Assembly (NCBI GenBank): GCA_016872675.1 | Contig: VGZG01000003.1 | Span: forward strand, 175-64,174 | Direction: 5' to 3' | Origin: Planctomycetota bacterium | Lineage (GTDB): Bacteria > Planctomycetota > UBA1135 > UBA2386 | Length of the DNA: 64,000 bases | Shown here: positions 1-34,636 of the stretch, piece after piece | How positions within the stretch are numbered: the stretch's first letter is position 1 | Layout of the letters: each line of letters begins with the position of its first letter | Made by a program: the position numbers and the translations under genes | Notes under the pieces: model-generated | Seen by the model: the letters and a program-made list of their open reading frames with translations, nothing else | Told to the model about the DNA's origin: nothing | Databases searched by the model: none

Positions 1-3000
1 GGCAGGCCGTCACCGTCGCGTTCGGTTGCGGGTGCGGCGACGTGCCGGTGAACGGATCGCCACGGAAGGCCAGCGCCCGCCGCGCGGCGTGGATCTGCGG
101 CCACGTGCTCTCGATCTGCGGCGTGTACCCGATGTACCCCGACGTCGCGGTCACCTGCGGCCACGGCGGCGTGGTCGCCGACGGCTGCGAGTTGGGGCCG
201 AGCGGGCCGACGTCGACCTGTGCTGCGCCGATGCGATTGGTGAGCAGGAAGCGCACCTGCTCCCACGCCGATCGATTGGCCCGACAGATGTGGCGGCGCT
301 CGGCGATGACGTCGTAGCGCACCCACTCGGTGTCGACGGCGTTGCCGCCCTGAGGCAGCAACTGGCAGAACTGCGTCAGCTGCAATGTCTGCGGGTCCCA
401 CAACGCCTGCGTGTTGCTGACCGGCAGCGAGATCGGCACGACGAAGACGATCTCGGTCGGCAGGTCGTCGAGGATCTTGCCCGGCTCCTGCGGCAGGCCG
501 TAGTCCTCGTAGTTGACGACGAAGCGGCGCGGCTGGCCGTCGAACTGGTCAGTCGGGATCTGGCCATCCTGGCCGGGCAGCGCCTGCTGCTGCGCGCGCG
601 TCACGCCGGTCAACTGATTGCCCTGGCGGGCGGTGTACTTGACCACCTCGACGCCACCAAACGTCGCCGACGCCGACGTCGTGGCCAGCGACCGGTCCCA
701 GCGCTGCAGACCCTGCACCAGCAGCGCATAGCCGCCGGTCGTCGGGAAGGCGTTCAGGATCTGCTCGTTGGCCGCGCTCGGAGGATACGTTCGGCCCGTC
801 GGCACCGGGTCGGCCAGCAGGATGTTGCCGGTCCAAGTCTCGTCGAGGCCCGTGCCGATCGGGAACGACGGTCCCAGCGGGATGGTGATCGTGATCGGTC
901 GCGGATTGTCGATGTAGCAACGCGCCACCGCGAAGCCGCCGATCGAGCCTTCGAGCGTCGTCTTGCCGACCATCATCGGCGTGTCCTCGCTCAGCGGCAG
1001 CGACCAGCCGGCGAGTTCGACGAGCGAGCCGACCGGGTGCGCCGGGAAGACATCGAGGTTGACGTTCTGGAACTGCGAACTGTTGATGTCGACGGTCGGA
1101 TTGCCCTGCGCGTCGACCGGAATGTCCGGCCGCATCTCGCGGCCGCGCATGCGCGCTGCGCGCCCGCCCATCGAGTCGTTCCACTGGCAGCGGAACGTGC
1201 TGCCGCGCACGCTCGTGTACTCGAACAACTCGGTGCCGATGCGCAGCAGGCCGACTTGCGGGAAGCCGTCCGTGCTCTCGACCTGCAGATCGACGTAGCG
1301 GTCGTTGCTGGCGACGCCCGGCAGCGTCTGGTTGTTGGCCAGCTGCGGGTCGAACACCGGCAGCGCCGCGGTCAGATAGGTCTGGAACCGCGACCTGCCG
1401 CGCGGGAAGCCGTCGACGTGCAGCGCGAGATCGCCGGGACGGCCACCCGCCGCCTGGAACGACACGTGCACGGGCGTGTTCGCCGGCAGGCCGAGTTCGG
1501 CGAGCGGCAGGACCACCTGCGAGGCCGTGCGCGGCACACCGGCCGGCGACGCGCCCGGATTGGGGTCGAGGCCGGCTTCGTCGATCGACTCGAGCAGCAG
1601 GTTGCCGTCGCGCGCCTCCAGCGCGAGCCGGTTGCGCTGGTCGGTGCCATCGCCGTGCTCGAACAGCGTCACCGCGCCGAGCGCCTGCGGCTCGAACCAC
1701 GCGCTGAGCCCCAGCTTGCCGACGAAGCTGTCCTGTGTGCTGAACGGGAAGGCGATCTGGTCGTGGCGACCGGTGCCCTGCTGCGTCATCCGTTGCCGCT
1801 GCGGCTGGTTGCCGGGGCCCGCCGGCCCCTGCGGTTGCGACGGCCCCGTGTTGTTGAGCAGCAGCGCGCCCATCTTGCTGACGTCGTGGCCGCGCACGTC
1901 CGGCGCCGCCCAGAACGTCTCCTGCACGCGCAGGGTCGGCGAGACGCGCCAGTTGCCCGGCATCGCCGTGGCGGGCGCGGCCTGTACGCCCGCCGCGACG
2001 TCGTCGCGGGCTGGAAAGCGCAGTTGGCCGAAGCCGAGGTTGGGGAACGCCGCCGCCAGCAGGTGCGGCGCGGCGCGACTCGCCGGATCGGCCCCGGGCG
2101 CGTTCGTCGGTAGCGCGCCGAGGTTGACCGGGTTGGTCGTCCAGAACGGCGCGCGGCGATCGAGCAGGAACGCCTCCTCGAACTGCTCCTGCGTCGACCA
2201 TCGGCGTTCGACGGCGAAGCCCGGCACGGCGACAGCGACGCCCGAGCGTTCACTGCGCGCCGCCACGCCCGACGCCACGGCGCTGCGCGTGCGGCTGGCG
2301 GCGGCGCGGTAGGCCATCCAGGGCCCCGACTGGAAGCAGATCGGCGCCGTGCCCATCTCCAGCACCGTGTCGCGCCCGGTCTGCAGGTTGCGGTAGATGT
2401 TGATCAACAGCGACGATTCGTCCTGGCTGGTCGCCGCTTCGAGCCGCGGCCGCCAAAGGCGCTCGACGAAGTCCTGCCAACCGGTGAACGGGCCGGTGCC
2501 CGCCGTGTCGGTCGCGGTGCGCAGCAACACGAGGTCGTCGGCGAGCTGGCGCGCCTTGTCGCGCGCAAACACCGGCGGCGTCGTGCGGATCGCGCCCGAG
2601 GGGGACAGCCGCACCTGCGGCGGCTGGCGCAACTGCGCCATCAGCGCCGTCAGCGTCTCGGCGCTCGCCGTGTTGGCATTGACCGGCGGCGGCACCAGCG
2701 GCTCCACCACCGTGTCGACGGCAGGGAAGTCCTGCAGCACGCGGTGCAGCAGGTTGAGCAGGAACGTGCTCGGCAGCGCCACGGCCTGCTGGCCCGTCGC
2801 GCTCGCCGTACCGGCGACCAGGCCGTGCTCGACCACGCCGGTGCGCACGTTGCGCAGCCGCACCGTGCTGCCGGGTCCAAGGTGCAGCGCCGACTTGACG
2901 ATCAGCGTGCGCGACTCGCCGGCAACGAGGTCGCCGAACACGCGCTCGGGCCGGCCCCACTGCGCCGAGGTGACCGCCTGCGTGTCGAGCGCGAAACTGG

Positions 3001-3787
3001 CGCGCAGCAGGTCGAGCTCGGCCGGCGTGAACGCGCCGGCGCCACCGCGCTCGATCTCCAGCAGGTCGCCGACCGCCAGCCACGGCTTGCGCGTGCGACG
3101 GGTCGGGTCGGCCGTGTTCGGCCAGTTGCTCGCCAGCACGCAGCGCCAATCGAGCACCAGCGTCTGGGCCGGGATCGGCTCGCGGCCGTCGCCGAACTCC
3201 GGCGCATCGACGGCGCGCTGCAGTTGGCGCAGCGAGTTGCCGTCCTTGTCGCCGTAGCGGACCAGTTCGCCGCCGACGAAGACCATGCCGCTCGGCGGCA
3301 GGTTGGCGGCGTCGTCCACCGCGAGCACGTCGGCGTCGGGCAGCAGTTCCTCGCGCAGGCGCGTCGTCGAGCCGAGCACGTTGGCGAGCAGGAGCGGCGA
3401 AGCCCCGTCGAGCGCCGGGAAGCGCTGCAGGTCGACGACGCCGCCGCCGAACACGACCTTGCCGTCCTCGGCGAGCGGCGCGAACGCCTTGGGCAGCTCG
3501 ACGCGCGCCGGGAATTCGTCGAGGCCGTCGTAGAGCGGCGTCGGGTCGATCGCCGGATGCGACAGCGCGGCGTCGGCGAGCAGCAACTCGCGCACGCTGG
3601 CGGAACCCTGGGTCACCGCCGCTTCCTCGACGTCGCGCTGCGCCGCGTCCGCGCCGACCGACATCGAGACCGCGAACGGCAGCGCCAGCAGCATCAGCAG
3701 CGTCAAGGCGAACAGCACGGCGAGCAACGCCATGCCAGCGGCGCGATCCACCATGCCCGCGGCGCGACCAATCGACGAGCGCATCAT
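1..3787 (-). CDS. Giant GspK-like minor pseudopilin (T2SS protein-K-like N-terminus plus long C-terminal extension with a LamG-like region); 3' end outside window, at least 1262 codons
   Basis: Absent from the supplied ORF track. The minus frame with codon starts at coordinate mod 3 = 1 has no listed ORF anywhere in 1-3787. My hand translation from ATGATG at 3787 reads through to position 1 without a stop (MMRSSIGRAAGMVDRAAGMALLAVLFALTLLMLLALPF...). It has a hydrophobic pseudopilin-type N-terminal helix without Glu5, as in GspK. It has a helix-hairpin-helix-like 'VNANTASAETLTALMAQL' at about 2640-2683. A LamG-like stretch 'GKLGLSAWFEPQALGAVTLFEHGDG...DLALHVDGFPRG' lies at about 1290-1740. The gene starts 2 nt after the stop of the upstream pseudopilin gene. 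Confidence 0.7.
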   Translation of the reverse strand, partial: MMRSSIGRAAGMVDRAAGMALLAVLFALTLLMLLALPFAVSMSVGADAAQRDVEEAAVTQGSASVRELLLADAALSHPAIDPTPLYDGLDEFPARVELPKAFAPLAEDGKVVFGGGVVDLQRFPALDGASPLLLANVLGSTTRLREELLPDADVLAVDDAANLPPSGMVFVGGELVRYGDKDGNSLRQLQRAVDAPEFGDGREPIPAQTLVLDWRCVLASNWPNTADPTRRTRKPWLAVGDLLEIERGGAGAFTPAELDLLRASFALDTQAVTSAQWGRPERVFGDLVAGESRTLIVKSALHLGPGSTVRLRNVRTGVVEHGLVAGTASATGQQAVALPSTFLLNLLHRVLQDFPAVDTVVEPLVPPPVNANTASAETLTALMAQLRQPPQVRLSPSGAIRTTPPVFARDKARQLADDLVLLRTATDTAGTGPFTGWQDFVERLWRPRLEAATSQDESSLLINIYRNLQTGRDTVLEMGTAPICFQSGPWMAYRAAASRTRSAVASGVAARSERSGVAVAVPGFAVERRWSTQEQFEEAFLLDRRAPFWTTNPVNLGALPTNAPGADPASRAAPHLLAAAFPNLGFGQLRFPARDDVAAGVQAAPATAMPGNWRVSPTLRVQETFWAAPDVRGHDVSKMGALLLNNTGPSQPQGPAGPGNQPQRQRMTQQGTGRHDQIAFPFSTQDSFVGKLGLSAWFEPQALGAVTLFEHGDGTDQRNRLALEARDGNLLLESIDEAGLDPNPGASPAGVPRTASQVVLPLAELGLPANTPVHVSFQAAGGRPGDLALHVDGFPRGRSRFQTYLTAALPVFDPQLANNQTLPGVASNDRYVDLQVESTDGFPQVGLLRIGTELFEYTSVRGSTFRCQWNDSMGGRAARMRGREMRPDIPVDAQGNPTVDINSSQFQNVNLDVFPAHPVGSLVELAGWSLPLSEDTPMMVGKTTLEGSIGGFAVARCYIDNPRPITITIPLGPSFPIGTGLDETWTGNILLADPVPTGRTYPPSAANEQILNAFPTTGGYALLVQGLQRWDRSLATTSASATFGGVEVVKYTARQGNQLTGVTRAQQQALPGQDGQIPTDQFDGQPRRFVVNYEDYGLPQEPGKILDDLPTEIVFVVPISLPVSNTQALWDPQTLQLTQFCQLLPQGGNAVDTEWVRYDVIAERRHICRANRSAWEQVRFLLTNRIGAAQVDVGPLGPNSQPSATTPPWPQVTATSGYIGYTPQIESTWPQIHAARRALAFRGDPFTGTSPHPQPNATVTAC

Positions 3788-3789
3788 GC

Positions 3790-4713
3790 TCACCCCTCCC
3801 GCACGGTGAAGACCGCAGTCGGCGCATCGATCGCCTCGCCGCGCGCATCGAATGAGAAGCGCAGCGGCTTCGCCACCTCGCACTCGATCGGCAGTTGCTG
3901 CGGCGAACCGAACTGGTAGACGAACCAGCGCAACTCGTCGACGACGCCGGCGAAGGCCGCGTCGGCGGGTGCGAACTCGAACGTCGCCTCCGGCTCCTGC
4001 TGCGGCGTGCCCTCGGCGATCGCGTCGCCGACCTCGCGGCCGTCGACCGCGAGCCAGCAGCGGCGCGTGTCGCAACCGAGGTCGATCGTGCACCAGCGGC
4101 CGCGCGGCAGCGGCTGCGCGGCGGCGACGGCGACGAGCCGATTCTCGTTGGTCCCGAGCGACGCCATCCGCAGGCGCGCGCGCAGCTTGCCGTCGGAGTC
4201 GAGGGTCAACTCGATGCCCGGCGGCAGACGCAGCAGCGTCGCCGGACCTTCGGACTCGCGCAGCAGGTCGAAGCGGACGACGAAACCCTCGCGCAGATCG
4301 AGCAGCGCCTGCGGCGCCCTCCACCGGACCGCCGGGTCGCGGCCGCCCGGTGCGATCCGCAGCGCGTGGCCGAAGCGGCCGTCACGCGTCGCCTCGCCGC
4401 CGAGCGTCGGCCGCAGGCTGTCGTCCTCGAATGCCTGGTTGGCCTCGAACCGGAACGACACCACGGGCCGCAGCAACCGCGCCTGCACCGTCGCTGGCGC
4501 TTCTTCGCTGCCCGGGCGGACGAGCACCTCGGTCGGCACGCCTTCCGCGCGCGCCGACAGCTGCGCCGCCCGCAGTTCGCCGCCGAGCGCGGCGTTGGCC
4601 ACCACCCGTGGATCGGTCTTGCCGAGGAAGCCAACGGACAGGCCGGTGAGCACCGACAGGATGGCGATCACCACCAGCAGCTCGAACAGCGTGAATCCGG
4701 TGGCGGCGCGCAT
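3790..4713 (-). CDS. Pseudopilin with prepilin-type N-terminal methylation motif and LamG/concanavalin-like C-terminal domain
   Basis: The N-terminus 'MRAATGFTLFELLVVIAILSVLTGL' matches G-F-T-L-x-E plus a hydrophobic helix. The C-terminal 'GRFGHALRIAPGG...GFVVRFDLL...RWCTIDLGCD..CWLAVDGREVG' resembles Laminin_G_3-type domains. Amino-acid composition is non-shadow. Confidence 0.75.
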   Translation of the reverse strand: MRAATGFTLFELLVVIAILSVLTGLSVGFLGKTDPRVVANAALGGELRAAQLSARAEGVPTEVLVRPGSEEAPATVQARLLRPVVSFRFEANQAFEDDSLRPTLGGEATRDGRFGHALRIAPGGRDPAVRWRAPQALLDLREGFVVRFDLLRESEGPATLLRLPPGIELTLDSDGKLRARLRMASLGTNENRLVAVAAAQPLPRGRWCTIDLGCDTRRCWLAVDGREVGDAIAEGTPQQEPEATFEFAPADAAFAGVVDELRWFVYQFGSPQQLPIECEVAKPLRFSFDARGEAIDAPTAVFTVREG

Positions 4714-4723
4714 CGGGGCAGGC

Positions 4724-5359
4724 TCAGTTCGACGGCCAGACGATGTCGTCGTCGGTGTTGAAGCGCTGGTCCGGGCCAGCGCTCAGCAGTTGGAACTTGC
4801 CAGCGCCGTAGACGACGCCATCGGGGCGGCGGCGGGACTTCACCTGCGCCGTGTCGGTTTCCGCGTCCGGCTTGACCACCTGCGGGCGCTCGAGCCCGAA
4901 TTTGCCGAAGTACGCGATCGGCGTGCTCCAGTGGTCGGTGACCTCGAGCCGGTCGCGGCGCTTGAGCAGCGGCAACTCGACGCCATGGTCGTCGGCGTCG
5001 GTGTTGCTGTAACGATCGGCGAGGCTGGTCAGGTCGAGCCCGTCCTGCTGCGACTGGCTGAGGAAGCAGACCAGCGACTCGATGCCGGTGTTGACGCCGT
5101 TGTCGCCCTTCCACGTCGCCTTGGCAATGCCTTCCGGCGCCTTCAGGTCGTCCGGCGGGTAGATGCCGTGCTTGCGCTGGAAGCGCTGGATGCCGCCTTC
5201 GAGCATCTGCAGGTTGGTCTCGGTGGCGGTAGCGTTGGCGGCCTCGTTGGCGCCGAACACCTGCGGCAGCAGCACGGCGGCGAGCACGCCGAGGATCGAG
5301 ATGACGATCAGGAGTTCGATCAGCGTGAAACCGCGCGCGGCGGCGGATGGACGGGTCAT
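4724..5359 (-). CDS. gspG: Type II secretion major pseudopilin GspG-like
   Basis: 'RGFTLIELLIVISILGVLAAVLLPQ' is a prepilin motif with Glu5. The C-terminus 'DHWSTPIAYFG...FQLLSAGPDQRFNTDDDIVWP' matches the GspG pattern D-x-W-G-x-P-Y...S-x-G-x-D...DDI. I moved the start from 5395 to the ATG at 5359 (MTRPSAAARGFTL), which lies 1 nt after the upstream stop. Confidence 0.75.
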   Translation of the reverse strand: MTRPSAAARGFTLIELLIVISILGVLAAVLLPQVFGANEAANATATETNLQMLEGGIQRFQRKHGIYPPDDLKAPEGIAKATWKGDNGVNTGIESLVCFLSQSQQDGLDLTSLADRYSNTDADDHGVELPLLKRRDRLEVTDHWSTPIAYFGKFGLERPQVVKPDAETDTAQVKSRRRPDGVVYGAGKFQLLSAGPDQRFNTDDDIVWPSN

Positions 5360-5360
5360 G

Positions 5361-8066
5361 TCAGCGCTCCTTGCGGCGTTCGAGCCGCCAATCATCGAAG
5401 GCGATGTCGACGTCGTCGCCCTTGTCGCCGAGCGCGAAGAGCACCGTCTTCAACTCGGAGTTGGTGTTGCCCGTAAGGGCCTTCATGACGCGGCGGTGGA
5501 CCACCGCGCCGTTCCAGCTGACGACGAGCGCGAACTGACGCATCGCCGCATCGCCCTGCGGCACGAGCCGCAGCTCAAGGCTCACTGCGGCCCCCGGCTG
5601 GAAGCCGGGAACCGCTAGGTTGACCTGCTCCACCGCGACCTCGCCGTTCTCGCGGCCGTCCGCGATGCGCAAGAACGGCTTGCCCTCGCGCACGCCGACG
5701 CGCACCAGCACGTCCGTGCCCTGGTTGCCGCGCGGCACCTCGATGCCGATGCCGTAGAAACCGCGCGCCGCCGGCTGGGCGGCGCCGGCCTGCACGGTGG
5801 CCGACACGGCGAGGAAATTGCGGCCCTTCTTGATGGCGCCGACGCGTTCGGCCCAGATCTCGCCCTGGCCCGCGCGGCTGTACTTGCCGCGGAACACGAG
5901 TCGCCCGGCGACGATCTTGCCGCCGAGCGGGCCGTCGTCATCGACGGCCCAGACGCTGCCGACCTCAGGGCGGTCGAACGAGTCGCCAAGCGACTCCTTC
6001 TGCGCGTGGTCATCGATCGCGTCGAGCGTCACCGAAGCCCACTTGGACACTGGATCGTCCTTGCCGAGATCCTGGGTCAGCCGCTGCAGCGCCATGGCGG
6101 CGTCCTCGACCTGGCCGCGGCTGTAGTCGACGACTGCCAGCGCGCCCTTGCCGAACGCCTTGTTGCGCTCGTCGGCGGCGGCGTCACGGCCGGCGGCGAA
6201 GGCCACGGCAGCGGCGCGAGGCTCGGCCGCGGCGAAGGCGATCACGCCCTGCCACTCCAGCAGTTCCTGCGCCGCCACCGGCGCCAATTCGACGGCGCGA
6301 TCGGCATAGCGTTGCGCGGCGACAAGCGCCGCCGCCTGCTCTTCGCCGACGCTTTCGCGGGCGCGCGCGGCCTGCGCCGCAGACATTTCGGCGACGGCGT
6401 GCACGAAGTCGTCGCGCAGGCGCAGCGCGCCGGCGAGCGACTCGACCGCGGCGCCGAGTTGCCCCGACAGCCGCAGCGCGCGGCCACGCAGGTACATCGC
6501 GAATACGTCGGTCGGGTCCGCTTCGAGGGCGCGATCGAGCCAACCCAACGCAGTCTCGTACTGGCCGACGCGCAGGAACGCCCAGGCGAGACCCGTGGCG
6601 GCGCGGTGGCGCAGCAGCGGATCCTGGTCAAACACGCGCAGGAACAGGTCGTGCGCGTCCTGCAACTTGTCGAGCCACGCGAGACACGCCGCCTGCCCGA
6701 ACTGCGCCGACCCTAGGTCGCCGACGTTCGTGACGTTGCGGAACGCGGCCAACGCCGCGTTGGCGTCGCCGGCGGCGTAGGCGATGCAGCCTTCAAGGTA
6801 CTGCGTGCCGCCCTCGGTGCCCTGCGCCAGCGGCAGCGCAGCGCGGGCTCCGGCCACGTCGCCGGTGGCGAGACGGCACTGCACGACGATGCGGCCGACG
6901 CGGGCTTTGGCGACCGGATCCTGGACCGAGCCAATCGCTTGTTCGGCCCGGAGCGCCGCAGCCGCGGCTTCCCTGCTGCGGCCACGTTGCCGCAGGAACT
7001 CAGCGAGCGATGCATGCGGCCGCGCGTCGGTCGGCTGCAATTGCGTCGCCTGCCGCAGATCGGCTTCGGCGTCGCGCCACAGGCCGAGTCGCGCCTTGAC
7101 GGTGCCGAGGCCCTCGAAACGGAATGCGCCCTCGCTGCCGGAGGGCGGCAGCTTGTCGAGCATCGCGAGTTCGGCGGCAAGATCGCCTTGCACGCGCAGC
7201 ACACGCTGCATCAGCCGCAAACCATCGAGGTCGCCCTTCGACAGTTCGCGATACTGCTGGGCGTGGAAGTAGGCCTTCTCGTAGACCCAGCTGTGCTCGC
7301 GCGCGCGCTCGAGCAACCAATCGACGAGCGCACGGCGCTCGGGCAGGTGCGATGGCAAGTCCGGCACCTTGCGCTCACGCCGCGCAATCTCGTTGCGCAG
7401 CGTGTTGGCGAGCACGACGCGATCGATGCGCAACGGCTCGGCGCCGAGCGTGAGGACCTCGGCAAGCCGCTGTCGCGTCAAGTCGTACTTGCGCAGCTTG
7501 AGCGTGACGCCAGTGAAGTCCCTGCGCTCTTCGAGCGCGAACAGGTCGAGGCCGTCGGCTTCGAGGACGCCGAACTGCGGCGCCGCGAGGCCGCCGTAAT
7601 AGACGCGGTCGTAGGTCAGCGCGGCGCGTGCCTCCAACTCGGCGCGCGTCCCTGCCGCTTGGCCTTCGACAACTTCAGCCGCCCCGGACGAAGCCTCGCC
7701 AGCGGTGGCGATGGCGACGTCAACCAGCGCGCCGCCATCAGCGCGCAGCGCATACGACTGCCGCGGATCCGGGCCAGGATCGAGCGGCGGCGCCGCCAGC
7801 GACAATGGCGCGCGCGGCGGGAATTCGAGAGTGCGCGGCGGCAGCGGTTTCGTCTCGCTCGGCTCGGTGCAGAAGTCGCGGCGCGCGACAGCCGGCGCGT
7901 TCGCGCTCGCCAGCGCCGGCATCGCCACGGGCGCTGCCTCGTACTCAGCGGCTTTTGGCGCGAAGCGGCGGAAGACCGGCGGACCGCCGAGATGGCCCCG
8001 GGCGACCAGCGCCGTGACGACGAGAGTCAGACCCGCGAGAACCTGTTCCTTGCGCAACGCCATCAC
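5361..8066 (-). CDS. Membrane-anchored TPR-repeat protein with C-terminal LamG/concanavalin-like domain
   Basis: There is an N-terminal TM segment 'VLAGLTLVVTALVA'. The central region has many TPR-like Ala/Leu repeats. The C-terminus 'GKIVAGRLVFRGKYSRAGQGEIWAER...FLRIADGRENGE...LVVSWNGAVVHRRV...DIAFDDWRLE' looks like a LamG/jelly-roll domain. The start is GTG 8066 or ATG 8063, with GGAGG 7 nt upstream of 8063. It overlaps the stop of the PilO-like gene. Confidence 0.7.
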   Translation of the reverse strand: MMALRKEQVLAGLTLVVTALVARGHLGGPPVFRRFAPKAAEYEAAPVAMPALASANAPAVARRDFCTEPSETKPLPPRTLEFPPRAPLSLAAPPLDPGPDPRQSYALRADGGALVDVAIATAGEASSGAAEVVEGQAAGTRAELEARAALTYDRVYYGGLAAPQFGVLEADGLDLFALEERRDFTGVTLKLRKYDLTRQRLAEVLTLGAEPLRIDRVVLANTLRNEIARRERKVPDLPSHLPERRALVDWLLERAREHSWVYEKAYFHAQQYRELSKGDLDGLRLMQRVLRVQGDLAAELAMLDKLPPSGSEGAFRFEGLGTVKARLGLWRDAEADLRQATQLQPTDARPHASLAEFLRQRGRSREAAAAALRAEQAIGSVQDPVAKARVGRIVVQCRLATGDVAGARAALPLAQGTEGGTQYLEGCIAYAAGDANAALAAFRNVTNVGDLGSAQFGQAACLAWLDKLQDAHDLFLRVFDQDPLLRHRAATGLAWAFLRVGQYETALGWLDRALEADPTDVFAMYLRGRALRLSGQLGAAVESLAGALRLRDDFVHAVAEMSAAQAARARESVGEEQAAALVAAQRYADRAVELAPVAAQELLEWQGVIAFAAAEPRAAAVAFAAGRDAAADERNKAFGKGALAVVDYSRGQVEDAAMALQRLTQDLGKDDPVSKWASVTLDAIDDHAQKESLGDSFDRPEVGSVWAVDDDGPLGGKIVAGRLVFRGKYSRAGQGEIWAERVGAIKKGRNFLAVSATVQAGAAQPAARGFYGIGIEVPRGNQGTDVLVRVGVREGKPFLRIADGRENGEVAVEQVNLAVPGFQPGAAVSLELRLVPQGDAAMRQFALVVSWNGAVVHRRVMKALTGNTNSELKTVLFALGDKGDDVDIAFDDWRLERRKER

Positions 8067-8884
8067 ATCCCCTCCGTCGCGTCAGTCCTCGGTTTGAACG
8101 CGAGCCCGATTGCCGTGCCCTTGATCGCGCATGCCTCGCCTGGCCGCGCTGGCTTCAGCATCTGCCACGATTCCAGGACGATCTGACTATCCGGCTTCGC
8201 GCCACCAAGCGCCTCGAGGAAGGTCAGCGCGGTGCGTTCGTCGGACTGGAATTGGAACGACAACTGCTCCTGCGTGAAGAAGTCGCGCACATCGATTTCA
8301 CCCGGTCGCTGCGCGCGCATCGGTGCGCGCTGGCTGCGGCGCGCGTCGAGCTTGAGTGACACAATCGACCGCAGACCCACGGCCGTCTCGTCGGTCGCGC
8401 GCGTGGCGTCGTGCGCGCCGTAGAGCCGCGCCTGGACCGCGTCGATCAGGTCCAGTCCGAAGAGCGTCGCGCGGATCTCGTCAACGCCGGTCGGGACCTC
8501 CCAGGCGATGGCGCCGTCGGCGACCTGGACGTCGCGCTGGTTTGCGCTGGCGAGGATGCGCTGCTTGAGGTCACGACTCTGCTGGAAGAGGAAGTCGCCT
8601 GGACGAACGCCATCCGGCAATTGAAAGGTCGCGCTGGGCGCGTACTGCAGCGCCTTGACGAGCGCGGCGCGCGCCTTGGCGAGTTCCTCACCCTCGGCGC
8701 GGGCGGCGTCGAGCGCGGCCTGCGTGTAGACCGGGCCAGTCGGCGCGCCGAGGCTGCGCTCGGTCGGCACCTGCACGGCGTGCACCGAGTCGAAGATCGC
8801 GCTGACAAGGAACCAGCTGACAGCGCCGCAGCCGACGCCGAGCAGCCACTTCTTGTTCTCCTGAACGAACGCGCCAACGTCCAT
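8063..8884 (-). CDS. PilO/GspM-like bitopic assembly protein
   Basis: The track ORF 8063-9607 has an Arg-rich N-terminal half that overlaps pilM in another frame. The real start is the ATG at 8884 (MDVGAFVQENKKWLLGVGCGAVSWFLVSAIF), which overlaps the PilMN stop as TGATG. The product has a single N-terminal TM segment and a periplasmic domain. Its position directly after PilM-PilN is the basis for the PilO/GspM-like label. Confidence 0.5.
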   Translation of the reverse strand: MDVGAFVQENKKWLLGVGCGAVSWFLVSAIFDSVHAVQVPTERSLGAPTGPVYTQAALDAARAEGEELAKARAALVKALQYAPSATFQLPDGVRPGDFLFQQSRDLKQRILASANQRDVQVADGAIAWEVPTGVDEIRATLFGLDLIDAVQARLYGAHDATRATDETAVGLRSIVSLKLDARRSQRAPMRAQRPGEIDVRDFFTQEQLSFQFQSDERTALTFLEALGGAKPDSQIVLESWQMLKPARPGEACAIKGTAIGLAFKPRTDATEGM

Positions 8885-10503
8885 CACATAGCCTCCTTGG
8901 CGAGTTCGACCGTGATGCGAAACCGCTCCGACTTGTCCTGACTGGGGATTGGCACCATCAGCGCCTCGAGACCAACCATGTTTGGGTCCGCCTGCATCGC
9001 CTGCTTGAACTTGAGGATCGCGCCGCTGGTCTGCACGCCATCGACCTCCTTGCCCGCGCCCTCGACGACGACGGTCGGCTTCTTGCGCACGCCGCCGCCG
9101 CCGCCCGACGTGACCTCGACCTTCTCGATCCACAACTGCGGCGGCACGTGCGCGGCGATGGCGCGCTGCACCCGCAGCAGGCCATGGTGCGCGAGCGACA
9201 GGCCAGCGAGGTGGTCGACGAGCGCGCGATCGGACTTGTTGGCGTCGATCTGCGCCGCGGCGTCGTTCTGCGCCGTGGTCGCCGCGATGATCTCCCGGCG
9301 CATTTTCTGGCCGGCGACCTCCGCCACGGCCACCGCCTTGCCGCCGTGACTCCACTCCAATGCGAGCGCGCCGACTACGAGCGCGCCGGCGACGATGTTC
9401 CAGACGGTGCGCTGCTGGAAGCGCTGCGCCTTGCGCACGGCCTCCGGCAGGATCTCGAGCGCATACAAGGAGTCGTCGAGCCGCCCGACGGCGAGGCCAA
9501 GCGCGACCACCGCTTCGGCGCGATGGGCCTGCAGCATCTCGGCGTCCGCCGGCGGCAGCGCCGAAAGGTCGACGTTGGCGAACGGATCGAAGACCTCGAC
9601 CGGGCACCGCAGCGCTTCGCGCAGGAAACCGCGGACACCGCGCACGTTGGCGCCGCCGCCGCTGAGCAGCACACGGTCGACCTTGAGGTCGGCGAGCTTA
9701 GCCTGGCTCTTGCAGAACGAGATCGAGGATTGGATCGCCGAACTGATCGCGCCGGCGGCCGACGTCGCCGCGAGCGCCACCTTCTCCGCCGCACCGCCGC
9801 CGTGCCGACCGCGGTTCTGCGGGTCGATGTCGAGCAGCTCCTTCTTGAGCGCCTCCGCCTTGCGTTCCGACACGTTGAAGGCCGACGCGATCGCGTCGTC
9901 GAACACCTTGGCGCCGGCGCTGAGGTTGCGCGCGAACAGCAGGTCGGTGCCCTTGCAGATCGCGAGGTCGATCGTCTGGTGGCCGATGTGAGCGAGGACG
10001 ACGACGCTGTCAGCCTCGACCGGACCGCACTTGAGGTAGGCGTTGTAGAGCGCCGTGCAGTTGGGCACGAACGCGGCGACCGCGCCGCCGGCGTCCTTGA
10101 CCTGCTGCTGGAGCCGGTCGAGCGCCTCGTCCTTGGCGAGCGCCAGCAGGATGGTGTCCACGCCGGACTCGGCGTCCTGAGTCGGCAGCAGGTTGTAGTC
10201 GGCGGACAACGCGCCGCCGGACTGCTGTGCGAGGTCGGCGATCTCGAGTTCCATCAGGTTGCGCAACTGCCAGTCCGGCGTCGGCGGCACCTGGCTGTAG
10301 CGCAGCATCATGTCGCGACCGGAGACGCCGCAGACGACACCCGCGAGCGGCAGCCCAACATCGCGCAGGGGCGCCGGCTCGCCATCCTCGCCGCGAGGCA
10401 GCGCCGCGAACCGCAGGATCTTCACGCCGCGTTTGTCGACCGACGCCGCCAGCGCCTTCGCGCTGTGGCTGCCTAGGTCGCATGCGATCGCTTTCTTCGC
10501 CAT
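8884..10503 (-). CDS. pilM: PilM-PilN fusion (GspL-like): actin-like ATPase-fold PilM domain, TM segment, PilN-like periplasmic domain
   Basis: 'MAKKAIACDLGSHSAKAL' and 'VLLSGGGANVRGVRGFLREAL' are PilM/FtsA-like actin-fold motifs. A TM segment 'VWNIVAGALVVGALALEW' follows at about residue 365, then a coiled/periplasmic region. Confidence 0.75.
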   Translation of the reverse strand: MAKKAIACDLGSHSAKALAASVDKRGVKILRFAALPRGEDGEPAPLRDVGLPLAGVVCGVSGRDMMLRYSQVPPTPDWQLRNLMELEIADLAQQSGGALSADYNLLPTQDAESGVDTILLALAKDEALDRLQQQVKDAGGAVAAFVPNCTALYNAYLKCGPVEADSVVVLAHIGHQTIDLAICKGTDLLFARNLSAGAKVFDDAIASAFNVSERKAEALKKELLDIDPQNRGRHGGGAAEKVALAATSAAGAISSAIQSSISFCKSQAKLADLKVDRVLLSGGGANVRGVRGFLREALRCPVEVFDPFANVDLSALPPADAEMLQAHRAEAVVALGLAVGRLDDSLYALEILPEAVRKAQRFQQRTVWNIVAGALVVGALALEWSHGGKAVAVAEVAGQKMRREIIAATTAQNDAAAQIDANKSDRALVDHLAGLSLAHHGLLRVQRAIAAHVPPQLWIEKVEVTSGGGGGVRKKPTVVVEGAGKEVDGVQTSGAILKFKQAMQADPNMVGLEALMVPIPSQDKSERFRITVELAKEAM

Positions 10504-10525
10504 AGGTGTGGTCTCGCGCTCGCCG

Positions 10526-12472
10526 TCAGTTGCCGAGGTGCTTCTGAATATACTCGCGGACGATCTGGCTCAGGCCGTCCTGCTGGGCGTCAGCGAACGC
10601 CTGCGCCAGCGCTTGCAGCCGTTGCCGCTGTTGCGCGGCAGTCTGCGCGTCGAACTCGGCGAGCTTGGCGCGGGCCGCGTCGCGCAGCGCCGTCGCAGCC
10701 TTGGCGTCGCCGAGGTTGCGCTCGCCATAGAGCGCGACGACGTCGTCGACGCCGAACGCGACGCGCTCGAAGCCGCCGCGCGTCGAGAAGAACGTCGCTT
10801 CGTCGAAATCGCGCTGCAGGTCCCGCAGCGTCGTGGCCTGCGCCGCCATTGTCTCGGCCGCGAGCGCGAGCGCATGGCCGAGGGTCTCGGAGTCCATCGG
10901 CACGCGGCTCGCGACCTCGCGCAGCTTGTCGAGCGTCTCACCCGGCCGGCCCTCGTCGCGCGCGCGGCGCGCCTGCCGAACGAGTTCGGCGGCTTGCTGT
11001 CGCTCGCCCCGGAACAGCACGTCGACCTCGAACTCCGCGAGCCCGATCGCCGAGATCCGGTAGCGGCCACCGCCAAAGCGGCCAACGCAATCGACTTCGC
11101 CGGCAAAACGAACGAGCGCGCGCGTGAGGTCTTCGCCGAATAGCGTCGAAACGCAGCGGAACGACGACGACGAGGCGCGCGACGTGAAAACGCCGTCGCT
11201 CGCGCCGGTGATCAGCGCCCCGGCGGCGGCCGCCGGCATCACGAGCTGCAGGCCGGGGGCATTGGCGGCGACGAAGCGGAAGCCTCGTTCGCCGACGGTC
11301 ACGGATAACGACGCGCCGAGGTCGCTCAGCGTCAGCAGATCGGCGCGATGCAGGCCGGCGAGCTCCGTCGGCGCCGGGTCGGGCAGGATCGCGAGCAGGA
11401 CCGCCGGCGCGTCCTTGTCGACCGTGCGCAGCGCGAGCGCATCACCGGTGCCGAAGACGGTGTGGCTGCCGTCGGCGAGCTTGGCTTCGACCGGCGCCGC
11501 CGAACCCGCTTCGATGACGCTGCAGTCGTCGACGTAAACGACCGCATCGGCGTTCGGCAGCGTCGCGACGACCTCCAGCTGCAGGCGGTCGCAGCCGGCC
11601 GGCGCCGCCAGCACGAGCTCGAGTCGCGTCCAGCCATCGGCCGCCGCCAGCTTGGTGCCAGTGCGGAAAGCGAATGGCGCTTGCTCGTTCGCCGACGCAA
11701 ACACCGCGCGCAGCGCGACGGTCGCGCCGCCCTCGGCGCGGACATGCGCGGCGAGCGTATAGGTGCGCTGCGGGAACACCGTCGTTGCGTCCTGCGCGCG
11801 CATCACGGCGAAGTCAGCCACGTCGGCGTTCTCGCCACGGCGTGCTTCGAACGCGCCGCTGCCGGTGTGCGCCACGCCACACGGGTTGAAGCCCGCGCCT
11901 GCCGGCCGCAGCGACCAACCATCGGCGGCCTCGCAACCGCTGACGCCGGCGGCGAGTTTGTCCCCCGCGACGGCGAGAATCGGCCGCGGTCCGGCGCTAA
12001 CGCCGCCACCGCCACCGACCTGCTGTGTTCGCCCGAGCCATAGGTACCCACCGGCGCCAAGACCGGCGACGAGCGCGAGTCCCAGTATTGCGGTCGAGCG
12101 CGAGCCCTTGCCCAGCCGCGAACGGTCGAGCGTGCGCAGCGCCACGGCGCCGCCCTCGGCGACGCCGACGGCGCTGGCGCCCTCCTCGCGGAAGGCCACG
12201 CGCCAGCGTCCGAAGGTCACCACGTCGCCGGGCGTCAACAAGAGCTCGGTGACGCGCTTGCCGTCCAGCAACGTGCCGTTGGTCGAGCCGAGATCCCGCA
12301 GGATGCAGCGATCGCCTTCGAGGACGATCTCGGCGTGGCTACCGGAAGTTTTCTCGTCGGCGAGGACCAGATCGTTGCCCGGCTTACGGCCGATGCGCAG
12401 CGGACGATCCGGGATCGCAACGACTTCGCCGGCTCGATCCCCGTCGAGGATCTCGAGGACGTACTTGGCCAT
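10526..12472 (-). CDS. FHA-domain protein with TM segment and CBM4/9-like carbohydrate-binding-type domain
   Basis: FHA signature: 'LRIGRKPGNDLVLADEKTSGSHAEI...LRDLGSTNGTLLDGKRV'. TM segment: 'TAILGLALVAGLGAGGYLWL'. The stretch 'GWSLRP...TYTLAAHVRAEGGATVALRAVF...WTRLELVLAAPAGCDRLQLEVV...VYVDDCSVIE' resembles the CBM_4_9 pattern. I moved the start to the ATG at 12472 (MAKYVLEIL). Confidence 0.8.
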   Translation of the reverse strand: MAKYVLEILDGDRAGEVVAIPDRPLRIGRKPGNDLVLADEKTSGSHAEIVLEGDRCILRDLGSTNGTLLDGKRVTELLLTPGDVVTFGRWRVAFREEGASAVGVAEGGAVALRTLDRSRLGKGSRSTAILGLALVAGLGAGGYLWLGRTQQVGGGGGVSAGPRPILAVAGDKLAAGVSGCEAADGWSLRPAGAGFNPCGVAHTGSGAFEARRGENADVADFAVMRAQDATTVFPQRTYTLAAHVRAEGGATVALRAVFASANEQAPFAFRTGTKLAAADGWTRLELVLAAPAGCDRLQLEVVATLPNADAVVYVDDCSVIEAGSAAPVEAKLADGSHTVFGTGDALALRTVDKDAPAVLLAILPDPAPTELAGLHRADLLTLSDLGASLSVTVGERGFRFVAANAPGLQLVMPAAAAGALITGASDGVFTSRASSSSFRCVSTLFGEDLTRALVRFAGEVDCVGRFGGGRYRISAIGLAEFEVDVLFRGERQQAAELVRQARRARDEGRPGETLDKLREVASRVPMDSETLGHALALAAETMAAQATTLRDLQRDFDEATFFSTRGGFERVAFGVDDVVALYGERNLGDAKAATALRDAARAKLAEFDAQTAAQQRQRLQALAQAFADAQQDGLSQIVREYIQKHLGN

Positions 12473-12686
12473 CGGTTGTATGTGGGGTCGGGCGGCAGGC
12501 ATGCCGCAGCAAGCGAAGCGCGCCGGCGGAGCGGCCGACGCACCGGATGGGTCGGGGACGCGAGCCCGCTGCCGGCCTGACACAAACTAGCCCGCCGCCG
12601 ATGCGCCGCAACCAACCGTTGGCAAGACTTCTATGCCGACTCTAGGTCGCCGCGCGGTGCCGTCGGCGTTACAACCTGCCGACGGG
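12473..12686. promoter_or_regulatory. Divergent intergenic region between the FHA/pseudopilin operon and rsmE
   Basis: A 214-bp non-coding gap lies between divergently oriented genes, so the promoters for both must sit here. I could not assign confident -35/-10 boxes. Confidence 0.3.
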
Positions 12687-13464: not shown

Positions 13465-15699
13465 TCAGAGGATGCCGAGCAGCAGTTGCAGGGCGTTCGA
13501 CGTGATCGCGCCAAAGGCGTTGACACCCGTCTTCAGCACCGCCGATTGGTTCATGATCACCACGCCCGAAGCGCCAGCGACATTCGGCACCGGGAACGAC
13601 ACTGCCGTCGTGGCGCCGCCGATCACGAACGTGTTGAGCACGTCGAGGCCGGCGTACAACCGGCAGCCGGGCATGCCCAGTGTGCCGAGATCGACGCCGG
13701 GCGCCGGGTACTGGGTCAGCGATAGGATCGAGATGCCGAGCGCCGAACCCGCCGGGATGTTCTGCGTATTGAGGTTGATCGTCGTGCCCATGATCGGGCG
13801 CGCCGACGCCGTCAGCGCGAGGTTCGGCACCGTGCCGCTGCACAGGACAAGGCCGCCAGCAAGGTTCGCCGAGATGTCCCAACTACCCGGGTCGGTTGCG
13901 CCGTTGCCGCGCGTGAAGCCGGTCAGGTACTCGTTGCCCGCCGCCGTCACCGCGCCGTAGACGACGTTGACGTTGCCGTTCGGGAAGAACTGGAACTGGA
14001 ACGTCGCGCTGCCGCCGGTGCCGTAGTTGGGCACCGCAGTGAAGGTGATGCGCACGACGGTAGGGCTGCTGTCGAGCTTGATCTGGCCCGCGCCGGCGTC
14101 GAGGTCATGCCACGCCGCTGCCCACATCGGGGCGCCGGCCAAGAACGACGACGGCGCCGGCGTGTACGACGTGCTGTTGCCGCCCGCCTGGACGAAGCCG
14201 TTGGTGCAGACCCACAGCGTGTTCGTCGCGCCGCCCGGGTACGGCAGCGAGAACGGCAGGGTGACGTTGGCGCCCGCGTCATCGCCTGACACGATGGTGG
14301 GCGCCGAAGCCGCCGGCGCGACGAACGTCGCCGTGCCCTGGCTCACCGCGTAGTTCGAGCCGTTGAACGTCAACGCCCAGCGCCCACCGGCCAAGTCGAA
14401 CGAACTCGCCGTGGTGAAATACTCGTAGAACGACGCCTGGCAGTTGGTGCCGCCGCAACCGGTGCCGGTCGCGGTCACCTGCGCGAAGGTCGAACCGCTC
14501 GGCACCTTGGCGCCGACGCCGACGCTCAGCGCGCCCGGACCCAGCCGCGCCTCGTCGATCGTCACCATGCCCGAGCCCGGCGCGAAGTTGGCGTCGAAGC
14601 CGAAGTTGTAGATCGTGCCCCAGTTGAGCGGGTTGCTCGCCGGGGCGGTAAAGACGATCTCGTTGCCGACGCGGGCCGCAGTCCACTCGTTGAGCGCGTT
14701 GGTGTCGATGTCGCCGAAGCTGAAGTTACTGGCCACTGCGGCGGCGTCGATCGGCACACGCAGCGTCGCGCCGCCGCGGTTGTTGTCGACGTTGTGGATG
14801 GCGTACTCGTAGTGGTGGTTGCCGCCGCCGAGCGGGGTCACCACGCAGCCGACGAAGAAGCGGCCGTCATCGTTGCCGTTCTGGCCGGCATTGACCTCAG
14901 CGCCTGGCCAGCGCGTCAGCACCGAGCCGTGCGTCATCGCGTTGGCGTTGTTCGGGAACGACCAGTTGCCGCCGCCGTACGTCGGCGAGCAACCGCGCGA
15001 GGCGAGGTTGTCGCCGCGGTTGGCGCCCGACTCGCCCTGGTGGATGAGCTGGATCGCGTAGAAGTACTGCGCGCCGGCCGTCGTCAGGTCGATCTCGCGC
15101 ACGGTCATGCGGTTCTTCACCGCGTCGAAAGCGCCGATCTGCGTGCTCGACAGCGAGCGGATGCCGTCGATCGCCGCCGCGCCGGTCACGGTCGGATCGC
15201 CGTAGTCGAAGTAGCTGCCGACCGGGTTCCACGTGCCGAGCCACGGATCGATCTCCGCGGGCGGGCCGAGCCAGAAGCGGTCGGCGTTGTTGCCAGCGCC
15301 GTACGTGTCGGAGCAACCGACGCCCATGACGCTGCCGCCGGGCGTGTTGCAGCTGCCGCAGGCGCCCGAGTAGTTCGTCGAAGTGAAGGCGTGCTTGCAG
15401 AAGCTCCAGTTGTTGACCTGCTCGATCTTGCCGCCGCTGACGCGCACCAGCAGGAAGCCGAACTTCGGGTGGTTGCTCTGCATCGCCGCGGCCCACGGGA
15501 TGCCGACCGAGCCCGGGTTGCACATCTCATTGAGCATCGCCATGCCGATCTCGCCGTTCGGATGGGCCGCGCCGCGGCGCCCGTAGTACGTCAGCGAATC
15601 GATCAGCGACAACCGGCCGTCGAGGCCGGCGACCACGTTCGATTGCGCCGCCAGAGTCGTGACAAGGGCCGCGAACGACAACAACCTGTATTGGTGCAT
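13465..15699 (-). CDS. Secreted protein of unknown function (signal peptide; Gly/Asn/Ser/Thr-rich)
   Basis: 'MHQYRLLSFAALVTTLAAQS' is signal-peptide-like. The frame is long with non-shadow composition and its own terminator. I recognised no catalytic motif. Confidence 0.7.
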   Translation of the reverse strand: MHQYRLLSFAALVTTLAAQSNVVAGLDGRLSLIDSLTYYGRRGAAHPNGEIGMAMLNEMCNPGSVGIPWAAAMQSNHPKFGFLLVRVSGGKIEQVNNWSFCKHAFTSTNYSGACGSCNTPGGSVMGVGCSDTYGAGNNADRFWLGPPAEIDPWLGTWNPVGSYFDYGDPTVTGAAAIDGIRSLSSTQIGAFDAVKNRMTVREIDLTTAGAQYFYAIQLIHQGESGANRGDNLASRGCSPTYGGGNWSFPNNANAMTHGSVLTRWPGAEVNAGQNGNDDGRFFVGCVVTPLGGGNHHYEYAIHNVDNNRGGATLRVPIDAAAVASNFSFGDIDTNALNEWTAARVGNEIVFTAPASNPLNWGTIYNFGFDANFAPGSGMVTIDEARLGPGALSVGVGAKVPSGSTFAQVTATGTGCGGTNCQASFYEYFTTASSFDLAGGRWALTFNGSNYAVSQGTATFVAPAASAPTIVSGDDAGANVTLPFSLPYPGGATNTLWVCTNGFVQAGGNSTSYTPAPSSFLAGAPMWAAAWHDLDAGAGQIKLDSSPTVVRITFTAVPNYGTGGSATFQFQFFPNGNVNVVYGAVTAAGNEYLTGFTRGNGATDPGSWDISANLAGGLVLCSGTVPNLALTASARPIMGTTINLNTQNIPAGSALGISILSLTQYPAPGVDLGTLGMPGCRLYAGLDVLNTFVIGGATTAVSFPVPNVAGASGVVIMNQSAVLKTGVNAFGAITSNALQLLLGIL

Positions 15700-33269: not shown

Positions 33270-33288
33270 GGCGTGGGTCGGTCTCTGT

Positions 33289-34515: not shown

Positions 34516-34636
34516 GCGGCATGTCACGGTAGCCAGCAACTGCTGCGCCTGCCACGCCGAGCCGTCGCCCTGGGCCACAGGCCACCGGCGCGTGTTTGCC
34601 GTGGCACCTGGCGACGGAGCGTGCCAACATCCGCGC
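34516..34636. promoter_or_regulatory. Divergent control region between the ATP-grasp B/A-MFP-RND operon and the glgA/ATP-grasp C operon
   Basis: A 121-bp gap lies between the two divergent start codons. It contains an imperfect inverted repeat AGGCCACCGGC...GCCGTGGCACCT. The promoters are inferred from gene geometry only. Confidence 0.3.

Follow-up and report, generated by a model that had tools for sequence, protein, structure and literature searches.

The left edge of a 64,000-nucleotide (nt) stretch of DNA from a Planctomycetota bacterium (GenBank assembly GCA_016872675.1, contig VGZG01000003.1), which we refer to as the window, cuts through a giant gene. This edge-truncated gene is real and conserved. 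It likely encodes a capping or initiating minor pilin of the GspK/PilK/PilX class that is modular, enlarged about 5-fold and part of a type IV filament specific to one lineage of Planctomycetota. For the protein, which we call the giant, we infer the label 'tip pseudopilin'.

2-3787, minus strand: putative giant GspK-like modular pilin gene, 5' 73% (1262 codons), with the stop past the left edge (open frame; GC content at third codon positions (GC3) 0.93; 108 homologues)

The gene hidden at the window edge

The sequence-only reading of this DNA had claimed that the largest gene at the left edge, with more than 1262 codons, was missing from the track of open reading frames (ORFs), and translation of window positions 1-3787 verified the claim. 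The minus-strand frame from the ATG at 3787 to the left edge comprises 1262 codons and contains no in-frame stop. It opens with ATGATG at 3787 (3787 mod 3 = 1) and is preceded, 6-13 nt ahead of the start, by the Shine-Dalgarno-like run GGGAGGGG; the upstream gene has its TGA at 3792-3790, the start of the giant lying two bases beyond. The program that listed the ORFs skips, by design, those running off an end, and the frame is therefore absent from the track.

The composition of the frame is that of a gene. The window DNA has a G+C content of ~72%, and in the frame of the giant the values for codon positions 1, 2 and 3 are 0.71, 0.51 and 0.93, GC3 staying within 0.88-0.95 across all 300-nt blocks. 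In the frames of the three long listed ORFs (26-2113, plus strand; 549-2201 and 2250-3848, minus strand) the GC value of 0.93 falls on codon position 1 or 2 and GC3 reaches only 0.51-0.71. Their products contain 22-25% Arg, and Arg, Ala, Gly and Pro together make up 48-69%, compared with 7% and 37% in the giant. By GC3, composition and homologues we therefore rule out each of the three as a real gene. These findings agree with the earlier view of the three ORFs as shadows and of the giant as balanced in composition; among the minus frames, its GC3 is the highest and is uniform by block. Moreover, 108 database proteins align to the fragment over 97-100% at an identity of 40-91%, so that it is not a chance open frame.

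Full-length homologues are all 1712-1775 amino acids (aa) long, typically ~1730, and the window consequently holds ~73% of the gene, the missing 3' part corresponding to ~470 aa past the edge. The closest relative, P0001, has 1734 aa and is 91% identical to the window copy. The motif VNANTASAETLTAL stands at residue 369 and 880 residues follow it within the window, in line with the more than 780 reported earlier. The 'roughly 4-fold' enlargement relative to GspK that had been estimated is too low, since the full-length relatives (~1730 aa) are ~5 times the size of GspK. More generally, ORF tracks that drop edge-running frames can conceal the largest gene of a window while high-GC shadow ORFs occupy its space.

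The N-terminal module and its relation to GspK

A pilin-like module (aa 1 to ~520) is followed in the giant by ~1200 further aa of confidently folded domains, as in modular pilins. The parts of the N-terminal module, located by sequence comparison and by AlphaFold2 models, are the following (HMM, hidden Markov model; HhH, helix-hairpin-helix):

3662-3787, minus strand: prepilin-like N-terminus, an 18-residue basic leader ending in Gly18 and then the hydrophobic alpha1N MALLAVLFALTLLMLLALPFAVSM with Ala at +5 (sequence, family columns)
3395-3748, minus strand: putative GspK-homologous N-terminal region, aa 14-131, with alpha1 and the first pilin strand; D-x-Q-R..LD is aligned to GspK D-x-Q..FNLN (hhalign, AlphaFold2)
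3173-3370, minus strand: predicted inserted beta-barrel 1, about aa 140-205, with the first copy of the 'G.V.V..E.IRY...GN.L..L.RG' repeat (AlphaFold2, repeat HMM, phrog_22827 at 145-194)
2993-3160, minus strand: predicted first helical (HhH/SAM-like) part of the alpha-domain, about aa 210-265 (AlphaFold2 helices 214-225, 239-248 and 255-264; collinear hhalign to GspK 'vsELr.v.Gmt')
2693-2959, minus strand: predicted inserted beta-barrel 2, about aa 277-365 (AlphaFold2 strands 281-364; gap relative to GspK in hhalign)
2231-2692, minus strand: second HhH motif PPPVNANTASAETLTAL (aa 366-384), predicted helices 409-470 and hairpin 490-519 back to the pilin sheet (5vtm_X, T2SS_GspK, T2SSK, hhalign, AlphaFold2)

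Behind a polar leader of 18 aa the N-terminus reads ...DRAAG/MALLAVLFALTLLMLLALPF (the slash marks the end of the leader), as in capping pilins. Gly-1 (G18) is present in 95 of 99 family members, and position +5 (A23) is Ala in 95 of the 99 and Glu in none. The consensus after Gly-1 is [VILM]ALLAVL, and the motif RG[VILM]ALL.VL is GspK-like: E. coli GspK starts with QRG/VALLIVLMLLAL, and the giant aligns to GspK QRGVALL.VL. A missing Glu+5 is the hallmark of the capping PilK/PilX/GspK class (PMC13533445; bioRxiv 10.64898/2026.02.12.705559), and all four neighbouring prepilins, unlike the giant, carry this residue.

We compared a 22-sequence N-terminal alignment of the family with an alignment of 43 GspK sequences seeded with E. 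coli gspK. Hhalign matched residues 14-131 to GspK 3-111 with a probability of 96% and E 4e-9, which takes in the helix, the next loop and the first strand including the D-x-Q...(F)NLN / LD motif. At a lower MAC threshold the match became collinear over 13-498 against GspK 2-314 of 327, and residues 330-545 alone, which do not contain the transmembrane helix, matched GspK 181-314 with E 1.6e-4. Together with the conservation of Gly-1 and Ala+5, the hhalign result bears out the GspK-like N-terminus proposed by the sequence-only reading. The same is true of the HhH-like motif VNANTAS that it had pointed out. When the full-family profile was compared with the PDB, the sole match at E <= 10 was GspK/XcpX (5vtm_X, E 0.48), at the PxPVNvNTAs motif; in NCBIfam, P0001 matched at E <= 1 only T2SS_GspK (E 0.59), at the same HhH place. 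Pfam T2SSK (PF03934) was found in 20 of 22 N-terminal fragments (best E-value 4.4e-5) and in 21 of 28 full-length members (8.7e-5), and is the only Pfam family that recurs in the majority of members. When the PDB is searched with a profile of the 22 N-terminal sequences, the GspK match is lost, and the one match that comes back, to glucosidase II beta, is coiled-coil-like and due to chance. The sequence-only signal is thus marginal without profile-profile methods.

The AlphaFold2 model of residues 1-545 has a mean predicted local distance difference test (pLDDT) score of 90.5 and a predicted TM-score (pTM) of 0.86, with the helix 13-74 (62 residues) and the strand 111-119 at pLDDT > 90. The elements follow one another as helix, strand 111-119, barrel 142-187, three helices 214-264, barrel 281-364, HhH helix 376-383, helices 409-470 and hairpin 490-519. 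The predicted order is that of GspK (alpha1, first strand, helical domain, closing strands) with two inserted barrels. Foldseek comparison of this model with the PDB gave no match at E <= 1e-3 and hence no significant three-dimensional match to GspK; its top matches are generic small beta-barrels (EF-Tu domain 2, riboflavin synthase, V-ATPase), because two barrels are inserted in the module. Judging from the profile comparisons and the conserved columns, the N-terminal module is very probably a GspK homologue.

One might argue that the giant is not a filament subunit at all, being instead a large periplasmic or surface protein with an uncleaved anchor that derives from the GspK helix or merely resembles it, and acting as a stand-alone adhesin or as a TPR/FHA/PilM scaffold. 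Such a view would be in keeping with the Foldseek result, with the fact that no curated pilin model was passed and with the weak N_methyl matches, seen in only 1-3 members. However, Gly-1 is retained in 95 of 99 members, the RG[VILM]ALL.VL motif is conserved, the homology runs collinearly past the helix to the HhH domain, and four canonical prepilins invariably flank the giant, so that we regard this explanation as improbable.

The distal region

The part of the giant that follows the pilin-like module was modelled on P0001 residues 540-1734 (pLDDT 88.1, pTM 0.84), and past the linker the model is almost all beta. Within the window it can be divided as follows:

1748-2152, minus strand: predicted linker, about aa 546-680, partly of low confidence, with a Q/G/P-rich stretch (pLDDT < 50 at residues 19-56 and 115-135 in the model of P0001 540-1734)
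1373-1756, minus strand: predicted LamG/ConA-like jelly roll, about aa 678-805, with approximate boundaries (AlphaFold2 strands at model residues 140-267; local Foldseek matches)
2-1288, minus strand: predicted beta-rich distal region, aa about 834-1262 in the window, with barrel repeats at about aa 834-880, 1013-1068 and 1150-1160 (repeat HMM, AlphaFold2 pLDDT about 90, BFVD)

A LamG-like region had been suggested from the sequence, and the suggestion has some local support at the level of structure but none from Pfam. Local Foldseek matches of the distal model include the jelly rolls of neurexin LNS, agrin and laminin LG, sialidase CBM40 and pentraxin domains over 105-125 columns, with a root-mean-square deviation of 3.3-4 A and a probability of 0.96-1.0, but with E about 1e-2. 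No PDB match of the distal model reached E <= 1e-3, and none of 28 members has a LamG-type match in Pfam. Since Foldseek gives no matching query residues, the placement of the jelly roll follows from the strand pattern and the sequence.

The barrels share a motif of ~50 residues, G.[VL].[VI]..E.I.Y....GN.L..[LV].RG, which was first noticed in barrel 1. With the repeat HMM, copies were located in P0001 at 835-865, 1048-1069, about 1152, 1448-1469 and 1515-1541, and the motif is also present at the C-terminus (residues 306-380) of the 401-aa prepilin encoded downstream of the giant in a related locus (L001 15178-16383, described below). In PHROG, the motif matched a baseplate wedge subunit (4e-6) and a tail protein (2e-4); weak matches to Rcc01698_C in 4 of 28 members are the only Pfam signal for the barrel copies of the giant. 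In two very long proteins, P0312 (5123 aa) and P0349 (4895 aa), the N-terminal profile of the family matches 11-18 stretches, the best at profile positions 134-199, that is, at barrel 1. The predicted viral structures of BFVD yielded 46 matches at E <= 1e-3. These were large structural proteins of cyanophages, tail fibres and proteins named 'ConA-like lectin' or 'E1 FCCH domain', and their global TM-scores were only 0.06-0.12. The models point to five or six small barrels of the phage tail/baseplate type in the distal region. What the giant and the phage proteins share is a domain vocabulary, not architecture or orthology. We also considered a prophage tail gene and rejected it, as pilin and housekeeping genes surround the giant and its global TM-scores against phage proteins are low.

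The extreme C-terminus of the family (...YEGQ.RI.DE.VTAR) is strongly conserved and has pLDDT < 50 when modelled without the N-terminal module. This behaviour is compatible with a fold-back of the CpaL type onto the N-terminal module.

Size and spread of the family

An exhaustive HMM search with the N-terminal 545-residue profile recovered 975 clusters (50% identity) at E <= 1e-3, of which 215 also pass E <= 1e-30; the matched proteins are mostly 1.3-2.0 thousand aa long. Conservation spans the whole family alignment (mean column identity 55%), and dozens of Gly, Pro, Arg and Trp positions, right up to the last residues, do not vary at all. When one genome per GTDB species was scanned, 107 relatives came to light. 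The best 80 of the 107 are all uncultured metagenome-assembled genomes (MAGs), and nearly all are labelled as Planctomycetota, a planctomycetal taxon or simply 'bacterium', with one bin bearing a gammaproteobacterial name. Among the relatives are two complete chromosomes and a 6.6-Mb contig, all three of chromosome scale; large sequences that carry the cassette include OZ245838.1, OZ245006.1 and JBKAGP010000001. Another relative is a contig 91% identical to the window (JBEITC010000001.1, L005), from which one can predict what the ~470 codons and three downstream genes lying past the left edge contain.

Homologues that bear a name, from Planctomycetota MAGs, are all called 'hypothetical protein', and the full-length ones have no precomputed Pfam domain. 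No public copy bearing a name has a recognised domain, and yet the family is large (975 clusters). Literature searches returned no description of the family, and both the giant and its gene cassette appear to be undescribed.

The cassette of ten genes

The giant is encoded by the seventh of 10 cassette genes, the order being FHA, PilM-like, bitopic, TPR, two prepilins, the giant, two prepilins and a secreted protein of 500 aa. The upstream part lies at window positions 3790-12583 (minus strand). The complete cassette is seen in L001 (1319-18354), an 80%-identical locus from a Phycisphaerales MAG, in which the giant is followed by prepilins of 401 and 156 aa and by the 500-aa protein. When the ten proteins were compared by tblastn with 80 related loci, the order and spacing were identical wherever the flank suffices, in ~50 loci, where the giant is 30-91% identical to the window copy. 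G-like and H-like prepilins upstream in the window and the 401-aa and 156-aa ones downstream in the ~50 loci are candidate partners of a capping pilin. Apart from the giant, the cassette consists of:

10526-12583, minus strand: FHA-domain membrane protein, 685 aa, first cassette gene, transmembrane segment 165-183 (Pfam FHA 2.8e-17, Yop-YscD_cpl 1.6e-16; synteny)
8884-10503, minus strand: PilM-like actin-fold protein, 539 aa, C-terminal extension with a weakly hydrophobic segment (Pfam PilM_2 2.4e-18; NCBIfam Amuc_1101 5.8e-40, below cut-off)
8063-8887, minus strand: bitopic membrane protein, 274 aa, transmembrane segment 14-32 (synteny)
5361-8066, minus strand: TPR protein, 901 aa, N-terminal hydrophobic segment 9-27 as a transmembrane anchor or signal peptide (Pfam TPR families, synteny)
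4724-5395, minus strand: candidate major (pseudo)pilin, 223 aa listed, probably about 211, G/FTLIEL, C-terminal GPD...DDDIVW (NCBIfam GspG 1.3e-13, Pfam N_methyl)
3790-4713, minus strand: prepilin, 307 aa, G/FTLFEL, GspH-like N-terminus and a weak LamG signal (Pfam N_methyl 8e-6, Laminin_G_3 0.0029; NCBIfam GspH 6.5e-5)
L001 15178-16383, downstream of the giant: prepilin, 401 aa, G/FTLIEL, in the GspJ position
L001, downstream of the 401-aa prepilin: prepilin, 156 aa, G/FTLAEM (best matches ComGE 1.7e-6, GspI 1.2e-4)
L001 16852-18354, plus strand: secreted protein, 500 aa, last of the cassette, with a signal-peptide-like N-terminus and a weak TPR/ANAPC3 signal

For the bitopic protein, Pfam and NCBIfam scans gave no family match; from its position, we infer a PilO/GspM-like role. 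Five of the cassette proteins are pilin-like and one of these both lacks Glu5 and is homologous to GspK, a set that corresponds to the H, I, J and K members of a type IV filament priming complex together with a major subunit. In PDB sequence searches, the candidate major pilin matched only alpha1 of geopilin, GspG and PilA, so that a type II secretion system (T2SS) and a type IV pilus are not separable in this way, and the 401-aa and 156-aa partners gave no informative match. The neighbouring prepilins do touch Verru_Chthon cassette proteins B, C and D, but in no part other than the generic N-terminal motif. TIGR02600 (Verru_Chthon cassette protein A) has no match in P0001 (E <= 1) or in the window fragment (E <= 0.1), and membership of the giant in that family was rejected.

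Several details of individual cassette proteins are worth recording. The listed start of the GspG-like prepilin (ATG at 5395) entails a 35-nt overlap with the end of the TPR gene (5361) and a 22-residue leader; the later start at Met13 (MTRPSAAARG/FTL) is more likely, because the homologue in L001, which is 80% identical, has only 212 aa, 11 fewer. Past its transmembrane segment, the FHA protein has a weak match (residues 251-362, E 0.0019) to NCBIfam GTA_spike_fiber, a phage head spike fibre domain, and this region may be another phage-fibre-like module. The 500-aa protein ends in a Cys-rich ...CISCSGEG...CFLCHGTKW, weakly similar (E 0.17) to the DnaJ CXXCXGXG zinc finger.

The match of the 156-aa prepilin to ComGE (1.7e-6) also bears on a possible role in natural competence, in which the giant would be the tip of a DNA-uptake pilus, its HhH motifs binding DNA as in ComEA and its distal region being an accessory as in ComZ. 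Pfam HHH_3, a ComEA-type family, is found in 2-4 members (best E 1.3e-4), and ComZ sets a precedent as a bulky tip pilin proposed to bind DNA (PMC8179133). Yet HhH motifs are normal in the alpha-domain of every GspK, where no DNA-binding role has been demonstrated, the distal domains are predicted to be lectin-like and phage-fibre-like, and the cassette has no ComEC, ComEA or DprA genes. We therefore give this role very little credence.

Filament machinery and the strength of the assignment

Several observations weigh against the assignment of the giant as the capping pilin of a type IV filament. The window copy itself has no Pfam or NCBIfam match, and no curated model (PF21687, PF03934, NF037980) reaches its cut-off: P0001 scores 15.2 bits against a cut-off of 24.2 for T2SSK and 9.6 against 130 for NF037980. 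The T2SSK matches span mainly the HhH motif of 17-60 residues, which is also found in ComEA-type proteins, and part of the hhalign score is supplied by the hydrophobic helix. The comparison of the 156-aa and 401-aa prepilins with GspI and GspJ draws on N-terminal motifs, size and position only. The family has no cultured member. Finally, neither an assembly ATPase nor a platform protein, prepilin peptidase or secretin was detected among the window ORFs scanned, which reach up to 48 kb of the 64 kb, and none of these genes is annotated in the cassette or within 10 kb of the giant gene in L001, the only locus for which gene calls were shown; the tblastn survey of the other related loci covered the ten cassette proteins only. 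The machinery genes may reside elsewhere in the genome.

The same survey bears on whether the giant might be the tip of a true T2SS pseudopilus that stays in the (enlarged, planctomycetal) periplasm, with the head acting as a piston face or as a platform that recruits substrates. GspK, the family to which the giant is related, is a T2SS protein, the candidate major subunit matches GspG best and has a GspG-type C-terminal motif, and the set of G-, H-, K-, J-like and I-like proteins mirrors the gsp operon. On the other hand, GspD, GspE, GspF and GspC/L/M were not found in the scanned window (to 48 kb) or annotated within <=10 kb in L001, and the cassette likewise lacks GspD, E, F and C; only the PilM-like and bitopic proteins are present, a PilM-type protein and not a recognisable GspL. 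A region of ~130 kDa predicted to be lectin-like and phage-fibre-like is also hard to fit to a piston in a secretin vestibule. On balance, a secretion pseudopilus seems an unlikely setting for the giant.

Outside the cassette, the scanned ORFs of the window are housekeeping and typical planctomycetal genes (PheST, methyltransferases, AcrB, PSCyt2/PSD1/DUF1501, a Ser/Thr kinase). An ORF of 744 aa with high GC3 and no Pfam match (13465-15699, minus strand) lies between RsmE-type and SAM-methyltransferase genes; of the related loci, no more than seven have it upstream of the cassette (L001 and L003-L006, which are the closest relatives, as well as L016). At 32052-37367, ATP-grasp genes (32052-33374 and 33289-34743, minus strand; 36147-37367, plus strand) surround a glycosyltransferase of the glycogen/starch-synthase type (34484-36112, plus strand); the ORFs 33289-34743 and 34484-36112 overlap by ~260 nt, so that at least one of their starts is probably wrong. 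A PSCyt2/PSD1 (DUF1549/DUF1553) gene followed by a DUF1501 gene (41164-45432, plus strand) is a pair typical of Planctomycetota, which agrees with the taxonomic assignment of the window. The Ser/Thr protein kinase (928 aa; 45457-48243, minus strand) shares the window with the FHA protein of the cassette, and a phospho-dependent link between the two is conceivable.

Proposed role

Returning to the giant as a capping pilin, we think it probable that it is a filament-tip subunit with an adhesin-like head. In the scheme that we propose, the giant would be cleaved after Gly18 by a prepilin peptidase encoded elsewhere and would be seated in the inner membrane through alpha1N. There it would cap or nucleate a tip complex with the 156-aa (GspI-like) and 401-aa (GspJ position) prepilins and the 307-aa GspH-like adaptor. 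The 223-aa GspG-like subunit would then polymerise beneath and push the giant outward, so that the distal region of ~130 kDa would be carried at the filament tip. This head might serve as a ligand-binding tip, most likely for a glycan or a surface, and might replace a separate adhesin of the PilY1 type; no PilY1-type protein is encoded in the cassette. Filaments without PilY1 have either a K subunit with an extra C-terminal strand or an adhesin fused to a pilin-like domain, with a C-terminus that folds back (CpaL; PMC13533445).

It is possible to go further and to imagine the cassette as an undescribed, Planctomycetota-specific filament in which a capping pilin of ~190 kDa, with a lectin head resembling phage tail fibres, captures polysaccharide or particles, while its C-terminal strand folds back on the GspK-like module and thereby licenses assembly of the tip, as CpaL does. 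We offer this fuller picture as a speculation with rather long odds. If true, it would provide a 'fishing' fibre such as has been postulated for the uptake of macromolecules by planctomycetes. The capping-pilin assignment would in any case suggest what one of the largest genes in these genomes does, and likewise the nine others of its cassette, and would put forward a specific candidate for the fibres with which uncultured planctomycetes adhere or capture ligands.

Comparison with known systems

With GspK/XcpX (PDB 3CI0, 5VTM; PF21687 and PF03934; NF037980) and PilK/PilX, the giant shares Gly-1 followed by [V/I]ALL.VL and the lack of Glu+5. Its profile match is collinear over nearly the whole of GspK, it is likewise predicted to have an HhH alpha-domain within a pilin fold, and it too is encoded among four other prepilin genes. 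The differences lie in size (~330 aa for GspK versus ~1730 aa), in the two barrels added to the alpha-domain and the C-terminal extension of ~1200 aa, and in the gene order, which is G-H-K-(J)-(I) in the cassette instead of G-H-I-J-K in gsp; neither GspC-F nor a secretin is encoded next to it.

Among phage proteins, large tail-fibre and baseplate proteins have in common with the giant the FCCH-like barrels with '...E.I.Y...GN.L..L.RG' and perhaps the ConA/LamG type of jelly roll, whereas their global TM-scores to it are only 0.06-0.12 and no phage genes occur near it. PilC/PilY1 is not a pilin and has a beta-propeller, which the giant does not: no Neisseria_PilC (IPR008707) match was found in Pfam among 28 full-length members at E <= 10, and no propeller among the Foldseek PDB matches. 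A PilY1-like fusion was rejected, there being no propeller in the model and no Pfam match.

Modular type IV pilins (S. sanguinis PilB/PilC, ComZ, CofB) are built like the giant from an N-terminal pilin module and grafted modules, and S. sanguinis PilC carries lectin modules of the ConA/LamG type (PMC8179133). The survey that described them found proteins through the N_methyl signature, its largest named example having 860 aa (PMC8179133), and the giant is ~2 times that size. Searches by signature or by extra domains would have missed the giant family because none of these is recognised in Pfam or NCBIfam. CpaL of the Caulobacter Tad pilus also has a pilin-like N-terminal domain carrying a large adhesin region at the tip (PMC13533445); it has about 600 aa and belongs to a T4c (Tad) system, while the giant has ~1730 aa.

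The nearest functional analogues of the giant are the PilX-EPS/HpsA-like cyanobacterial tip pilins (IPR049774), capping pilins of > 1280 aa that are encoded beside pseudopilins and have been proposed to replace PilY1 as tip plug or adhesin (bioRxiv 10.64898/2026.02.12.705559). HpsA is cyanobacterial and the giant planctomycetal, and their architectures differ: HpsA owes its bulk to a beta-solenoid that interrupts the pilin fold between its last two strands, whereas in the giant a jelly roll and small barrels would form a C-terminal chain. P0001 has no HpsA family match, as NCBIfam returns only T2SS_GspK at E <= 1, and there is no beta-solenoid in the AlphaFold2 models or among their Foldseek matches. 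Membership in EPS_HpsA was accordingly rejected for want of an NCBIfam match and of a solenoid. The principle of a giant capping pilin that replaces the tip adhesin thus already has precedents in HpsA/PilX-EPS, CpaL and ComZ. If our assignment is correct, the giant would represent a third, architecturally different tip solution for filaments without PilY1, namely a C-terminal chain of lectin-like and phage-fibre-like domains as opposed to the inserted solenoid of HpsA and ComZ.

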